A stretch of 41,819 nucleotides of DNA, taken from IMG/VR virus record IMGVR_UViG_2721755721_000002; one strand, 5' to 3'. Under the pieces are notes generated by a model. It worked only from the letters and a program-made list of their open reading frames with translations. It had not been told where the DNA came from and did not search any database. Below, one piece after another: positions 175 through 34,844 of this stretch (position 1 is its first letter; every line of letters starts with the position of its first letter). Origin of the DNA: a virus (lineage: Duplodnaviria > Heunggongvirae > Uroviricota > Caudoviricetes). The translations under genes were made by a program, and so were the position numbers.

Positions 175-227
175 GGGCGGCAGAGCAGTCACGGAGTAAA
201 ACTGATACCGCCAAACGTCACCAGAAA
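175..227 (-). ncRNA. dicF: DicF small regulatory RNA (53 nt), followed on the minus strand by a T-run
   Basis: Reverse complement of 175-227 reads TTTCTGGTGACGTTTGGCGGTATCAGTTTTACTCCGTGACTGCTCTGCCGCCC, which I recognise from memory as E. coli DicF; it lies downstream of ydfA/B/C-like ORFs as in the Qin dicB operon. Not database-verified. Confidence 0.75.
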
Positions 228-3757: not shown

Positions 3758-4033
3758 GTGGCAAAAGTTTTTACTCCCGAACTGCGGGAAGAAGTGAAGG
3801 CGCGCATTGTGGAACTGGTACGCAGAGATGGGCGAAAAACGCGTAAACAACTGGAAAATGAAACCGGGGCGACGAGACACCTGATAGAAGTTCTGGTGAA
3901 AGAGCTGGTAGTTAGTGGCGCAGTATATGGTTCAGGACATGGAATATTTCCTTCGGAGCAGGCTCGTAAGGACTGGGGAAAAGCCCGCAAAAAAAATGTC
4001 GAGAGCGGCAGTGAAAAAGAAGAGCGACCCTGA
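3758..4033 (+). CDS. Hypothetical small basic protein (91 aa, GTG start)
   Basis: ORF with AGGAGG-like RBS; no family recognised; overlaps the next ORF across an A8 tract. Confidence 0.35.
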   Translation: MAKVFTPELREEVKARIVELVRRDGRKTRKQLENETGATRHLIEVLVKELVVSGAVYGSGHGIFPSEQARKDWGKARKKNVESGSEKEERP

Positions 4034-4166
4034 CCTGATTTATTCATTGCTAGATGGCGAAATACGCCGTTACAACAGACGACAGAATATAATTTGTCGC
4101 GAGTGTCGTCAGAGCGAAGTTATGCAGCGCATACTGGAATTTTATCAGGGAAATGTTCGGTATTAA
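3996..4166 (+). CDS. Hypothetical small protein with CxxC (57 aa from ATG 3996; track ORF from 3915)
   Basis: MSRAAVKKKSDPDLIYSLLDGEIRRYNRRQNIICRECRQSEV...; ATG lies at the end of the A8 run 3989-3996. Confidence 0.3.
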   Translation: MSRAAVKKKSDPDLIYSLLDGEIRRYNRRQNIICRECRQSEVMQRILEFYQGNVRY

Positions 4167-4409
4167 TTGAAGTGACGAAATTAAAGAGCATTAGTTCAGA
4201 TATTAATTGACACTTCGATGGCACAGGCCCAGACCTAGTCTGGTTGTCAGCTTTGAGCTAGGTGAACGTTGGTATCGTTAGTTTGTATTAATCAACGGAG
4301 AATAGGCCAAATGACTTTTCTTTGCCTCTTTTAATTATAATTCAAGTTCAATTGATTACATTGAAGTACTAATGTGAGTCCGTCAAACAAATAGCTCAAG
4401 GAATAGGTC

Positions 4410-7208
4410 ATGTGGGGAAGTGAAAACAAACAAAATCTGGACGTACTGGATCCTGTGCAGTTGGTGCGTATCGAAGCGGTACACCGGGGGTTCCTTTACC
4501 AGCATCTTTACGCTGTAGGCTGCTTACTTTTGGCGCAGAGGGCAGCTATGGACTCAGTAACTGTCGAGCTTGATGAGGATATTGAGCTGAAATCCAAACA
4601 GGAACGTCTCTACATTCAGGTTAAAACCCGTTCAAAACCTATTATGCCCAACGATGTGTCGGGGGCTCTGGAGCGATTTGTAAAGCTCAGAAATGAGCAT
4701 ACTTCGGCAAACCGCGAAGGGGTGGCTTCTTTTGTGATTATTGTAAACCAGGCGCCTGGACCGCTGCTTCAGAAGATGATTGACGATAAAAAGCTTCCTT
4801 CTGATGTTCTTATTGTCTGGCCCCAGTCGACAGCTGGACGTCACCCGGCACTTCCGCCCGCATGGAGTACTCTGGCTGATGCGGCCACATGGTGTATCGC
4901 AGAAGCAGAAAAGCTGAAATTTTCACTATTGTCCCCAGAATCCTTGATTTGGAAGTTAGCAGGATTGGTTCAGCTTGCCGCCACCGGAGGCGATACCAAT
5001 GGACAACATACGTTTTTCACGGAAGAACTTACTGAACTATTTGAACAGTTGATCGTTCAGCTACAGGACTTTCCTGCACCACCAGCACTGTACCGCCCAC
5101 AGAACGAAGAACCTTCTCTCACATCTGGTGAGCGGATCCGTATCCTTTGTGGACTCTCAGGTGCAGGCAAGACAGCTTGGGCCGCACAGGCCGCATTACA
5201 CTCCACTGCACTTTGTGCTTATTACGACACCGGTGATCTTCCCGGTCCAGCTCTGGCCAGTACGCTGGTGCGCGAGATGGCTGCTAGATTTACAGCCCGT
5301 GACCAAGACGGTTTGCGCAGGATTTTGCTCCCCGGTGCCAGTGGTTTTGAGGCTCTTAGGAGTTTTGATACCTACCTGAAAGAGCAGGGTACCACCTTGG
5401 TGCTGGTTCTGGATAACGCCCATCGTGTACCTGCGGAAAATCTACTGGATGTTCTGAATGCAACTACACATATTCGTTTTGTGCTGTTGTGCCAGCCTCA
5501 CGAAAACGTTCGCGAACTGGAGGTCATGACGGGGCTACAGCGCGAGGGCCTGCAGGGATGGAATCTCGATACGGTAGCTGTCGTTGTAAACGATATCGGA
5601 GGATTTGCCACCGCTATGGGATACGAGCAGCTACGGGCTTACACTGGTGGTCTTCCCCTGTATGTAGAGAGCGCCGCAAAAATCGCCGTTTCTGATTATG
5701 AGCGTAATGTCGATGCTCTGTGTGCTGAACTCCAGCAACAAACCCATACTGCGGAAACCGCCCAAGAAATTATTCTGTCACGTGTATTTCAGGGATTTGA
5801 ATCACTACTTCAGAGCGCGCTGGCATTGTTCAGTCTCTCTGACGTAGGGCTGAGTCGCGAAGAGATTTCTACGCTCCTAATCAATTCGCTGAACATTTCA
5901 CCAAGCAGTGCTGCTTCTTTAATTAGGAAAATGCGCGCTACTGGCACTATTGAAATTTATGGAAACCAGACCCTGAAGGTACATGATGCTGTCAGGGGGC
6001 TAGGACTGCAACATCTGGAACTGATGGATCAGGGTATATCGAACAAAGCGCTACTAGCGCTGAAAGACCTTTTAGTTGAAAGTCTTCATAATACCCGCAA
6101 TACAAAACGGTTATCGTTGTTGACTCAACTTTATATTAAGCTCAATGATGTCACGACGTTGATCGAACTCTCAGGCCAAGAAATGTTTTATGAGATGGGC
6201 GTGACGGTCGACATTCTTGCAAGCTTGGAGCGTGCTGCAACATCGGACTTATTGGGACCTGTTCATAAATTCTGGGCATTGGATGGCCTTGTTTTCGTTG
6301 AGCTTAAAGACGGAATATCCGACCACATTGCTCAGAGGTTAAACATCATGGGAGCTTTACTTGCGGAGCACAAGTTCGGCTATCAAGAAGAGATGGCCTA
6401 TGCAATGAAACGAATGTTATTTTCGGCAGAAAGCAATGATGCACGAGAAGTTCAAAAGCTGGCACAGGAAGTCCGCCCCCAACTCCCAGATGAAGAACAT
6501 AAACGCATCTTTGACTACAACCATGCCATTGCACTCTGGAGATTAAAAAAACTCAAGGATGCTGAAACATTAAGCTGTAATGTTATACAAGGGTACTATT
6601 CTTTATTTGGTATCACACCTGCTGATGTCATAGGAAAAAACGCCGACGCATTATGGAAAACTATTAATCATTCCGAAAATATGCAGGAACACTTTAAACA
6701 TATGGCTGATGCTCTGGAGTTGCTGGCCAGAATTCGTGATGCGCAGGGAAAACTGTCACCATTACTGCGTATTCATTCGATGAAGTTCTACAATCTGGCC
6801 ATGGCCCCGGAATCCATGGTCAGGGTGGGCCAAGATCTGGCGGATGAGTTTGTTGCCATAAAGGATTACGACGGTGCCAAGGAAGTCATGGAGCAACATG
6901 TCCTGCCGGTTGTCAATGAGGCAGGTCTAGTACATCGACTGATTCAGGTTCGAAGCCAATACGCAGTCATATTAGCACTATCGGGTCAGCATAAAGCAGC
7001 TGATGTCGAAATGCAGCGCCTTGCTCCCTATATCGAAGGCCTCACAGGTGTACAGCGTCAAGAAATCCAAAATCAATCAAATTACATCGTACAGCTTGCC
7101 CATAAAGCAGCAAAGACTAAATTAACTGAAGTTTTTGGTGCGGTCGGCCGGAATGAACAATGCCCCTGTGGCTCGGGAATAAAGTACAAAAAATGTCACG
7201 GTGCCTGA
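4410..7208 (+). CDS. Large STAND-type P-loop NTPase with candidate N-terminal PD-(D/E)xK-like effector, C-terminal helical repeats and SEC-C zinc knuckle; putative single-gene antiphage protein
   Basis: 932-aa ORF; Walker A GLSGAGKT (aa 248-255), Walker B LVLVLDNAH (aa 330-338); N-terminal VELDEDIEL...YIQVKTRS; C-terminal CPCGSGIKYKKCHG; lower GC than flanking phage genes, AT-rich upstream. Confidence 0.75.
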   Translation: MWGSENKQNLDVLDPVQLVRIEAVHRGFLYQHLYAVGCLLLAQRAAMDSVTVELDEDIELKSKQERLYIQVKTRSKPIMPNDVSGALERFVKLRNEHTSANREGVASFVIIVNQAPGPLLQKMIDDKKLPSDVLIVWPQSTAGRHPALPPAWSTLADAATWCIAEAEKLKFSLLSPESLIWKLAGLVQLAATGGDTNGQHTFFTEELTELFEQLIVQLQDFPAPPALYRPQNEEPSLTSGERIRILCGLSGAGKTAWAAQAALHSTALCAYYDTGDLPGPALASTLVREMAARFTARDQDGLRRILLPGASGFEALRSFDTYLKEQGTTLVLVLDNAHRVPAENLLDVLNATTHIRFVLLCQPHENVRELEVMTGLQREGLQGWNLDTVAVVVNDIGGFATAMGYEQLRAYTGGLPLYVESAAKIAVSDYERNVDALCAELQQQTHTAETAQEIILSRVFQGFESLLQSALALFSLSDVGLSREEISTLLINSLNISPSSAASLIRKMRATGTIEIYGNQTLKVHDAVRGLGLQHLELMDQGISNKALLALKDLLVESLHNTRNTKRLSLLTQLYIKLNDVTTLIELSGQEMFYEMGVTVDILASLERAATSDLLGPVHKFWALDGLVFVELKDGISDHIAQRLNIMGALLAEHKFGYQEEMAYAMKRMLFSAESNDAREVQKLAQEVRPQLPDEEHKRIFDYNHAIALWRLKKLKDAETLSCNVIQGYYSLFGITPADVIGKNADALWKTINHSENMQEHFKHMADALELLARIRDAQGKLSPLLRIHSMKFYNLAMAPESMVRVGQDLADEFVAIKDYDGAKEVMEQHVLPVVNEAGLVHRLIQVRSQYAVILALSGQHKAADVEMQRLAPYIEGLTGVQRQEIQNQSNYIVQLAHKAAKTKLTEVFGAVGRNEQCPCGSGIKYKKCHGA

Positions 7209-7485
7209 GTCTTTGTACGACCATGCGGGCCTTATTGTCTTGCTATTGCTCTTATGGTTCGCCTTTCTGATTGATTTCATATTGGCGAGGTGACGGGAGT
7301 TAAGTAGAATGGCTGCGGGTGCTTGAGGCTATCTGTCTCAGGCATGAACACCAAAGGCAGATAGAGAAAAGCCCCAGTTAACATTACGCGTCCTGCAAGA
7401 CGCTTAACATTAATCTGAGGCTCAATCTATGAACGGCAAATCTAGGTTAGCCTCTTACGTGCCGAAAGGCAAGGAGAAGCAGGCT

Positions 7486-7641
7486 ATGAAGCAGCAAAAG
7501 GCGATGTTAATCGTCCTGATCGTCATCTGTTTAACCGTCATAGTGACGGCACTGGTAACGAGGAAAGACCTCTGCGAGGTACGAATCCGAACCGGCCAGA
7601 CGGAGGTCGCTGTCTTCACAGCTTACGAACCTGAGGAGTAA
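7486..7641 (+). CDS. hok: Hok/Gef-family type I toxin (51 aa)
   Basis: MKQQKAMLIVLIVICLTVIVTALVTRKDLCEVRIRTGQTEVAVFTAYEPEE is near-identical to HokD/RelF as I remember it; AAGGAG RBS; the track ORF 7429.. is an in-frame upstream extension. Confidence 0.85.
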   Translation: MKQQKAMLIVLIVICLTVIVTALVTRKDLCEVRIRTGQTEVAVFTAYEPEE

Positions 7642-10406: not shown

Positions 10407-10482
10407 GGCCCTTTAGCTCAGTGGTGAGAGCGAGCGACTCATAATCGCCAGGCCGCTGGTTCAAATCCAGCAAGGGCCACCA
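10407..10482 (+). tRNA. tRNA with CAU anticodon (Ile2-lysidine or Met type), encoded CCA
   Basis: Cloverleaf by hand: acceptor GGCCCTT/AAGGGCC, D-stem GCTC/GAGC, anticodon loop CTCATAA, T-arm GCTGG-TTCAAAT-CCAGC. Confidence 0.8.
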
Positions 10483-10489
10483 TCACATA

Positions 10490-10566
10490 CCGCCATTAGC
10501 TCATCGGGATAGAACGCCAGCCTTCGAAGCTGGTTTCGCGGGGTTCGAGTCTCCGATGGCGGTCCA
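10490..10566 (+). tRNA. tRNA-Arg (anticodon UCG), encoded CCA
   Basis: Acceptor CCGCCAT/ATGGCGG, anticodon arm CCAGC-CTTCGAA-GCTGG, T-arm CGGGG-TTCGAGT-CTCCG. Confidence 0.7.
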
Positions 10567-10579
10567 TTATCGGTATTCT

Positions 10580-10656
10580 GCGTTTTTAGCTCAGCCGGAC
10601 AGAGCAATTGCCTTCTAAGCAATCGGTCACTGGTTCGAACCCAGTACAACGCACCA
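10580..10656 (+). tRNA. tRNA-Arg (anticodon UCU), encoded CCA
   Basis: Anticodon arm ATTGC-CTTCTAA-GCAAT, T-arm ACTGG-TTCGAAC-CCAGT, D-stem GCTC/GAGC; one acceptor-stem mismatch. Confidence 0.7.
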
Positions 10657-11422: not shown

Positions 11423-11623
11423 TTTTTTTGTTTGCTGTTTATTAAAAACACTTCTGCATGGTGAATCCCCCTGTGCGGTGGGGCAATCAGCAAGAAGGAA
11501 TATGGGGTAATCGCGGATTCAGGTGCTGATACTGAATTCACCGGGAGGCACCCGGCACCATGCTTTGCCACAAAAGTGTTATTTCTGTTTTTCTCAAACT
11601 ATCATCGTTATCCCTTTATTTTC

Positions 11624-33217: not shown

Positions 33218-33336
33218 AAGCGAAAAAATCCCGCAGTGCTCACGGACAGGAACTGCGGGAGCGTTACGAAGATTGAGTGTAAGGAATTATTCTTATGTCA
33301 CGACAAAAACATTAACTCAGAGGTAATGACTCCAAC

Positions 33337-33702
33337 TTATTGATAGTGTTTTATGTTCAGATAATGCCCGATGACTTTGTCATGCAGCTCCACCGATTTT
33401 GAGAACGACAGCGACTTCCGTCCCAGCCGTGCCAGGTGCTGCCTCAGATTCAGGTTATGCCGCTCAATTCGCTGAGTGTAACGCTTGCTGATTACGTGCA
33501 GCTTTCCCTTCAGGCGGGATTCATACAGCGGCCAGCCATCCGTCATCCATATCACCACGTCAAAGGGTGACAGCAGGCTCATAAGAAGCCCCAGCGTCGC
33601 CATCGTGCGTTCACCGAATACGTGCGCAACAACCGTCTTCCGGAGCCTGTCATACGCGTAAAACAGCCAGCGCTGGCGCGATTTAGCCCCGACTAGCCCC
33701 AC
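33337..33702 (-). CDS. insB: IS1 InsB transposase reading frame
   Basis: [34 protein letters not shown]...[42 protein letters not shown] matches IS1 InsB. Confidence 0.9.
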
Positions 33703-33757
33703 TGTTCGTCCATTTCCGCGCAGACGATGACGTCACTGCCCGGCTGTATGCGCGAGG

Positions 33758-34033
33758 TTACCGACTGCGGCCTGAGTTTTTTAAGTGACGTAAAATCGTG
33801 TTGAGGCCAACGCCCATAATGCGGGCTGTTGCCCGGCATCCAACGCCATTCATGGCCATATCAATGATTTTCTGGTGCGTACCGGGCTGAGAAGCGGTGT
33901 AAGTGAACTGCAGTTGCCATGTTTTACGGCAGTGAGAGCAGAGATAGCGCTGATGTCCGGCAGTGCTTTTGCCGTTACGCACCACCCCGTCAGTAGCTGA
34001 ACAGGAGGGACAGCTGATAGAAACAGAAGCCAC
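33758..34033 (-). CDS. insA: IS1 InsA
   Basis: (M)[50 protein letters not shown]... matches IS1 InsA; GTG start. Confidence 0.9.
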
Positions 34034-34154
34034 AGGAGCACCTCAAAAACACCATCATACACTAAATCAGTAAGTTGGCAGCATCACCTAACTCAGAGAG
34101 GGAGGATGTGCCGTTCTTTTCAGGGAGAAAGGATTTATCGTCCTGAGGAATAAA

Positions 34155-34176
34155 GGTAAGGGGCCCGCCCCTTACC
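34155..34176. terminator. GC-rich hairpin downstream of sodC
   Basis: GGTAAGGGG-CCCG-CCCCTTACC perfect 9-bp stem; weak T-run on the minus strand. Confidence 0.4.
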
Positions 34177-34183
34177 TGACTGA

Positions 34184-34711
34184 TTATTGAATGATGCCGC
34201 AGGCCATTCTCGCACCACCACCGCCCAGGGGCTCCGGATGGTCATGATGGTTATCACCGCCAGCATGAAGCATGAGAGAACGCCCTTTAATCTCTTTTAA
34301 TGAGTTCAGTCTCGGGGCCAGGACCGGGTAGTTCGCTTTTCCGTCATGCGTCACGAACAGCGCAGGGAGGTCGCCCAGGTGTCCATCCGGAGACCAGGGG
34401 CCAAGATGTTTGCCGGTGTTTTTCGGGTCAAAGTGACCGCCAGCCGATAATGCTGCGACCGGTTTTCCGTCTTTCAGTGCCGGGGCGCAATTTCCTTTTT
34501 CGTGCACATGAAAACCATGAATGCCTTCAGACAGAGAGTGAAGGGCTGGTGTGAACAGCAGACCGTAGGGGGTCTCCTGAATGGTTATTTTTCCAATGCT
34601 GACTTCTTTTCCGTCAGCACTGACAAGGTTCATTGGGACTTCCTGTTCTGCTGCGTATCCGCATGATGCTGCTGTCAGCATGGCAATGGCAGCAATGATT
34701 TTACATTTCAT
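34184..34711 (-). CDS. sodC: Periplasmic Cu,Zn superoxide dismutase (SodC), prophage moron
   Basis: [20 protein letters not shown] signal peptide; [29 protein letters not shown] are Cu,Zn-SOD signatures. The track ORF runs on to 35218 antisense to J; the real start is the internal ATG. Confidence 0.85.
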
Positions 34712-34844
34712 AAAACCCTCATTAATTCCGTTAACAGACTGAGCTTGCTGGTTACAGGGTAACAAACAGCGTTCTGATGATATCGCGCAATAGCTGTGCA
34801 ATATCCTATCACTGCGATTAATAATACCAATTGAGAGGAACATT

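Follow-up and report, generated by a model that had tools for sequence, protein, structure and literature searches.

An IS1 insertion with a perfect 9-bp target duplication between tail gene I and sodC in a lambdoid prophage of Escherichia coli

Introduction

IS1 is an insertion sequence of 768 bp that generates target duplications of 8 or 9 bp (PMC12903888). Its transposase, InsAB', has a DDE catalytic site and is produced via frameshifting at an A6C motif, whereas InsA on its own binds the ends of the element and acts as a repressor (PMC12903888). InsAB' has a strong preference for action in cis and a weaker action in trans, and it acts in trans on IS1 elements that are otherwise immobile (PMC12903888).

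Three described systems are close to the locus reported here. The first is the presence of full-length IS1 in temperate phage genomes, in DNA that is not essential for growth, as in phage P1 and Shigella phage SfIV, whose records contain 768-bp IS1 copies 98.2–98.8% identical to the present one. These cases differ from ours in the phage and in the site, which here is the spacer between tail gene I and sodC of a lambdoid prophage. The second is the prophage sodC 'moron' of the E. coli Stx/O157 type, in which a Cu/Zn sodC with its own terminator lies between I and J, opposite to the late operon. The sodCI gene of Salmonella Gifsy-2 is the prophage sodC of a lambdoid phage. At the present locus the sodC module is unaltered and the IS1 is placed just outside its left edge. 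The third is the class of non-autonomous IS copies, which combine intact inverted repeats with a broken transposase frame and can be mobilised only in trans. The present copy shares these properties but differs from the shortened, MITE-like derivatives in being full length minus one base and in still encoding InsA.

The DNA analysed was a stretch of 41,819 nucleotides, hereafter the window, from the E. coli genome GCA_001901405.1 (CP010238.1). A reading made from the sequence alone had reported an IS1 in it, between tail genes I and J, and the identity of this element, the history of its target site and its likely effects on the neighbouring genes were analysed by comparison with related genomes.

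Results and discussion

The element at 33322–34088 matches thousands of E. coli IS1 copies. The best of these, all of them 768 bp long and annotated as IS1A-family, have 99.3% identity to it, whereas the present copy is 767 bp. Its closest known counterpart is the IS1 of E. coli K-12 (IS1A), with which it has in common the 23-bp ends, InsA, the A6C motif, the DDE_Tnp_IS1 domain and a 9-bp duplication. Both terminal inverted repeats have no mismatches to the IS1 consensus pattern, for which no match would be expected by chance. Both insA and insB are read from the minus strand, like sodC and against the direction of the phage late operon. The InsA protein is identical to that of K-12 strain MG1655 and to that of Z142-1, and a promoter-like site overlapping IRL coincides with the known position of the IS1 promoter PIS1 (PMC12903888). 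The match to the DDE_Tnp_IS1 profile covers positions 12–131 of 131, and the exact 121-aa product that contains it is on record in one contig only, CP010238.1. With a length of about 768 bp, IS1 ends, the zinc-ribbon/HTH protein, the A6C motif and the DDE_Tnp_IS1 domain sequence all present, the element belongs to the IS1 family. The coordinates of all features are collected in Table 1.

Table 1 Features of the IS1 insertion and of its surroundings (window coordinates)
Feature	Position	Strand	Basis
Rfam gathering-level matches	175–226 (-), 7317–7491 (+), 10407–10653 (+), 11427–11599 (+)		Rfam gathering scan
Lambda-type tail assembly protein I (gpI), 193 aa	32636–33217	+	Pfam PF06805; RefSeq annotation of empty locus
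Terminator T2, hairpin TCCCGCAGT/ACTGCGGGA then T-run	33229–33260	-	Terminator prediction; also conserved in sodC-less phages
Target-site duplication, left copy TAACTCAGA	33313–33321	.	Single copy in empty site
IS1 (IS1A-type), 767 bp	33322–34088	-	99.3% identical to 768-bp IS1A copies; one 1-bp gap in alignment
IRR terminal inverted repeat GGTAATGACTCCAACTTATTGAT	33322–33344	+	Identical to MG1655 IS1A
insB C-terminal part, orphaned, 121-aa ORF with DDE_Tnp_IS1 domain	33337–33702	-	Pfam PF03400, E=4e-68
Premature TAG stop from 1-bp deletion	33693–33695	-	Alignment, translation
insA, intact, 91 aa, zinc ribbon + HTH	33758–34033	-	Pfam PF03811 (1e-21), PF12759 (5e-31)
A6C programmed -1 frameshift motif TTAAAAAAC, intact, insA frame	33776–33784	-	Same register as reference copies
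Promoter-like site CTGCCA-16-TATGAT, overlapping IRL	34054–34081	-	Promoter scan
IRL terminal inverted repeat GGTGATGCTGCCAACTTACTGAT	34066–34088	-	Identical to MG1655 IS1A
Target-site duplication, right copy TAACTCAGA	34089–34097	.	Window sequence
Terminator T1, 10-bp-stem hairpin, 6 nt past sodC stop	34154–34177	-	Terminator prediction
Prophage sodC, Cu/Zn superoxide dismutase, 175 aa	34184–34711	-	Pfam PF00080, E=4e-32; annotation
Tip attachment protein J, 1158 aa	34845–38321	+	Pfam GpJ domains; annotation

The element is bracketed by a perfect direct repeat of 9 bp, a length within the 8 or 9 bp that is usual for the family. The 9-mer occurs nowhere else in the window on either strand, the chance expectation being 0.23 copies per window, and simple arithmetic gives 4^-9, or about 4e-6, for the chance of 9-nt identity beside two fixed element ends. 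The repeat seems to extend to 10 nt, TAACTCAGAG, only because each copy is followed by a G, which is the first base of IS1 on the left and the next base of the flank on the right. The sequence-only reading, which had placed an IS1 with both inverted-repeat ends and identical flanking 9-mers at 33313–34097, was thus exact in its coordinates; its identification of the element and of the ends also holds, and only the length departs from the canonical value.

That reading had further proposed that the 9-mers are a duplication of one ancestral site, and that IS1-free homologues should contain the empty site ...AACATTAACTCAGAGAGGGAGG... This comparison was carried out with a predicted empty site made of 400 nt from each side and one copy of the 9-mer (800 nt in total), and it was positive. 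The reconstructed site was found with 100% identity over all 800 nt in 10 complete E. coli genomes, and it was at least 80% covered in 537 genomes. When the window was aligned by BLAST with a related IS-free locus (L001), the segments for the left and right flanks overlapped by exactly the 10 nt TAACTCAGAG. After removal of the IS and one repeat copy in silico, most IS-free loci aligned with the window without gaps and colinearly at 99.0–99.7% identity. An exact 37-nt empty-site sequence was also present in 35 IMG/VR viral contigs. Finally, contigs encoding an identical 193-aa gpI were looked up in 24 of 168 index blocks; among the ten places listed, one had IS1 (the source genome), eight had an empty I–sodC spacer and one was without sodC. 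Empty loci therefore carry a single copy of the 9-mer between contiguous flanks, as expected for a simple insertion.

These data bear on two other accounts of the repeat. According to one, the agreement of the 9-mers is coincidental, or faulty assembly has placed the entire IS here. Beyond the general possibility of such errors nothing speaks for this, and it can be practically dismissed, given the low probability of a chance match, the occurrence of the 9-mer at those two places only, and the fact that a misplaced repeat would not create a duplication whose single copy sits in the empty sites. According to the other, the IS1 is what remains of a rearrangement that IS1 itself mediated and that brought unrelated DNA together, be it by cointegrate resolution, inversion, deletion or recombination between copies. 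IS1 is a common mediator of such rearrangements (PMC11708052), and the site is very close to a joint in the mosaic structure of the prophage (see below). The products of rearrangement have non-matching flanks, however, whereas the duplication here is perfect; the same left-plus-right junction without IS1 exists in dozens of independent genomes and viral contigs, and the flanks are colinear and gap-free across the site. The empty-site data thus effectively refute a rearrangement scar. In sum, IS1 entered non-coding DNA of the prophage by simple transposition and duplicated 9 bp of its target; both the element and the event are of known kinds.

Three related loci are also of note. In the viral contig L051 (IMGVR_UViG_2703719355_000016) the empty-site sequence is found twice, at 3872–4171 and 4751–5050, within a 300-nt direct repeat (98% identical, 879 bp spacing) that covers the gpI 3' end and the spacer; either the gpI region has been duplicated in tandem or the contig is misassembled. 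Locus L014 (CP148401.1, 5172733–5178314) is a second gpI–sodC copy within one genome, and its DNA upstream of gpI aligns inverted to the window (from 30777 back to 28785), suggesting that it is what is left of a rearranged prophage. The closest complete-genome relative (L018, 8131–9298, NZ_CP148579.1) is integrated beside tRNA-Ser, mtfA and yeeJ, and its integrase is frameshifted. The window does not include the integration end of the source prophage.

The source genome alone yielded the occupied junction, which was absent from 5,426 complete E. coli genomes (RefSeq), 50,697 phage records, GTDB representatives, metagenome contigs and viral contigs. The insertion therefore appears to be private to the lineage of CP010238.1, with the proviso that short-read assemblies usually break at IS1, so that sister strains sharing it could be missed. 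It had been called relatively recent, which is correct in the sense that it is private to one lineage; an absolute age cannot be set, as even the nearest of the IS-free relatives identified are 0.34% divergent in the flanks. A search for papers citing CP010238 returned none.

The missing base, which had escaped the sequence-only reading together with the 767-bp length, is in insB. Alignment with IS1A of MG1655 and with the best match located a 1-bp deletion between 33693 and 33694, where GAC[A]TAGCC has become GACTAGCC; the intact reference sequence at this site is GACATAGCC. As a result, InsAB' after the -1 frameshift ends at residue 113 (...DEQWG*) instead of forming the continuous 232-aa frame of the reference copies, and the DDE domain is out of frame with the InsA-derived N-terminus, in a separate ORF. 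Translation thus predicts a copy that retains production of the InsA repressor and has lost the ability to transpose by itself, provided that the deletion is not an assembly error. As both ends are intact, it should be movable only with InsAB' supplied in trans by another IS1. The copy also has four base differences from the best match. Two of them, at 33604 and 33646, are also seen in further IS1 lineages, among them that of strain SK1144, and the other two are private: 33587 changes Arg to Leu in InsB and 33887 is synonymous in insA.

The insertion could be genuine and the deletion nonetheless a sequencing or assembly error, in which case the copy would be a normal autonomous IS1 of 768 bp. 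The deletion was seen in none of about 58,000 IS1 places in the 5,426 complete E. coli genomes, nor in GTDB representatives or metagenome contigs, and an error would be expected to be unique in this way. Polishing of an assembly is hardest in repeated elements, IS copies are prone to consensus errors, and the source genome is absent from the RefSeq complete-genome set. Against this, the window is not prone to indels: there are no gaps in 12.8 kb aligned with L001, and only two unpaired 1-bp indels, both intergenic, in about 38 kb aligned with a relative that is about 96–99% identical by segment. In addition, the deletion site GAC[A]TAG is not a homopolymer, and the substitutions, two of them common to real IS1 lineages, make the sequence resemble a genuine allele. 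We consider an assembly error unlikely. The two unpaired indels, relative to NZ_CP148579.1, are at 1327 and 25689 and consist of a T6-versus-T5 run and G-AATT versus GAAATT.

Taken as a whole, the locus is very probably explained by a single insertion of an IS1A-type element into the I–sodC spacer, with a copy that is non-autonomous. On this reading, the element entered AT-rich DNA of a lambdoid E. coli prophage, in the gap that separates tail gene I from the sodC module convergent with it, and repair of the staggered target cut gave the usual 9-bp duplication. IS1 prefers AT-rich targets, and the location of this target at the local GC minimum (40%, against 55–62% in the flanking coding DNA) fits that preference.

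The position of the insertion between the gpI stop codon and the 3' end of sodC was as first described: gpI is followed by the Cu/Zn SodC gene on the opposite strand, convergent with gpI, and then by J, and the gpI stop codon is 95 nt to the left of the duplication. The accompanying suggestion that no ORF is disrupted holds for annotated genes, as RefSeq annotates no gene between I and sodC and none spans the site. The only reading frames that cross the empty site are two mechanically defined ones on the plus strand, one of them overlapping gpI out of frame; neither is in the RefSeq annotation.

Two predicted minus-strand terminators flank the element. T1, the proximal terminator of sodC, lies between sodC and IS1, and T2 stands between the IRR end and gpI, abutting the gpI stop, so that IS1 sits between T1 and T2. 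An effect on sodC termination, which had been raised as a possibility, is therefore unlikely: with the IS downstream of T1, termination should be unchanged. Transcripts leaving the IS via IRR would meet T2 before running antisense into gpI. No intrinsic terminator was predicted on the plus strand inside the IS, and a scan for hybrid outward promoters at the IS ends gave only the element's own promoter-like site in IRL.

A sub-threshold Rfam match to STnc400 in L001 (6447–6523, minus strand, about 34144–34220 of the window) scored 23 bits against a gathering threshold of 80 (E=0.08); it covers the sodC stop and T1 and is probably terminator-hairpin similarity only. Gathering-level Rfam matches were all away from the target and comprised DicF, STnc100, sok (the antitoxin of a hokD-type module) and, downstream of Q, three tRNAs.

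The late transcription of lambdoid phages is antiterminated by Q. Between I and J of relatives that lack the IS, it already traverses about 0.86 kb of DNA that is untranslated and antisense to sodC, and the extra 0.78 kb is thus unlikely to abolish expression of J on induction. We infer that phage function is little affected. IS1 is classically polar in both orientations through Rho-dependent termination, and this polarity could reduce the expression of J should antitermination by Q be incomplete.

The insertion site is next to an older joint. When the spacer was compared with phage genomes, most matches ended at query position 113. An aligned set of sodC-less phages (JLK-2012, Stx2c and Stx1a phages, Stx2_14040, 1720a-02 and locus L011) shares sequence from the gpI stop to ...TAAC(T/G)CAGAGA, and similarity resumes exactly at the J start codon. 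In the window, similarity to these phages breaks between ...TAACTCAGAGA and GGGAGG. The sodC module is thus a discrete cassette of 745 bp (34100–34844), with 2 nt between its left joint and the IS1 duplication.

In the sodC-less lineages, the segment that the module replaces contains a minus-strand sigma70-like promoter, TTCACA-16-AATAAT, with 10 of 12 matches in locus L017; in Stx2_14040 the -10 box is a perfect TATAAT. The -10 box ends 1–2 nt before the joint. The promoter is followed by a conserved body of about 95 nt that ends in T2. This body corresponds to 33222–33323 of the window (minus strand), and the arrangement was compared in L017 (2510–2645), L016, L011, L019 and L020. The IS1 duplication covers roughly the first nine nt of the 95-nt unit. 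From its sequence organisation, this segment of the I–J spacer looks like a small minus-strand transcription unit and a candidate small RNA, which we regard as a lead rather than a finding. In a permissive Rfam scan of the empty locus, no match at E<=10 fell within the spacer. When the 106-nt minus-strand segment was folded, its stability beyond the terminator hairpin was no better than that of shuffled sequences (z = -1.6). Three known small RNAs were considered and rejected as its identity, AgvB and AsxR because they are at the PR' moron site and Esr41 because it is in SpLE1.

A more speculative proposal is that the IS1 target was not hit at random but is a reused joint between the -10 box and the start of the ~95-nt minus-strand small RNA, where first the sodC module replaced the promoter, to within 2 nt, and later IS1 inserted; we attach only a low probability to it.

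It is also improbable that the insertion matters functionally, either by cutting off the conserved unit that ends at T2 from upstream transcription or by polarity on J, so that the prophage would be altered or crippled and not just neutrally marked. In favour of the former, the duplication covers the first few nt of a segment about 98% conserved between sodC-carrying and sodC-less phages, and in five sodC-less lineages the segment is preceded by the sigma70-like promoter and ended by T2; in favour of the latter is the classical polarity of IS1. In the sodC-type prophage, however, the sodC module had taken the place of the promoter by the time of the IS1 insertion, and no promoter-like site was found there. 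Moreover, the segment has no Rfam match and an unremarkable fold, the T2 stem is invariant and so gives no covariation support, and Q-antiterminated late transcription already crosses the untranslated sodC module.

Conclusions

To the first description of this insertion the analysis adds that the copy is frameshifted and, on its sequence, non-autonomous, that the sodC terminator should be unaffected and that a joint of the mosaic borders the site. As a marker for the prophage lineage the insertion is clean and strain-private, and it is a textbook IS1 duplication with a verified empty site. For annotation, the element is best described as a frameshifted, non-autonomous IS1 still encoding the InsA repressor, and inactivation of the prophage or of sodC by IS1 should not be assumed.

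The lead of wider interest is the conserved promoter–terminator unit in the I–J spacer of Stx-type and other lambdoid phages, at whose 5' edge the joint of the sodC module and the target of IS1 both fall. If the doubtful proposal of a reused joint were true, the I–J spacer would encode an undescribed phage small RNA, and the 5' edge of this RNA would be a hotspot for foreign DNA.
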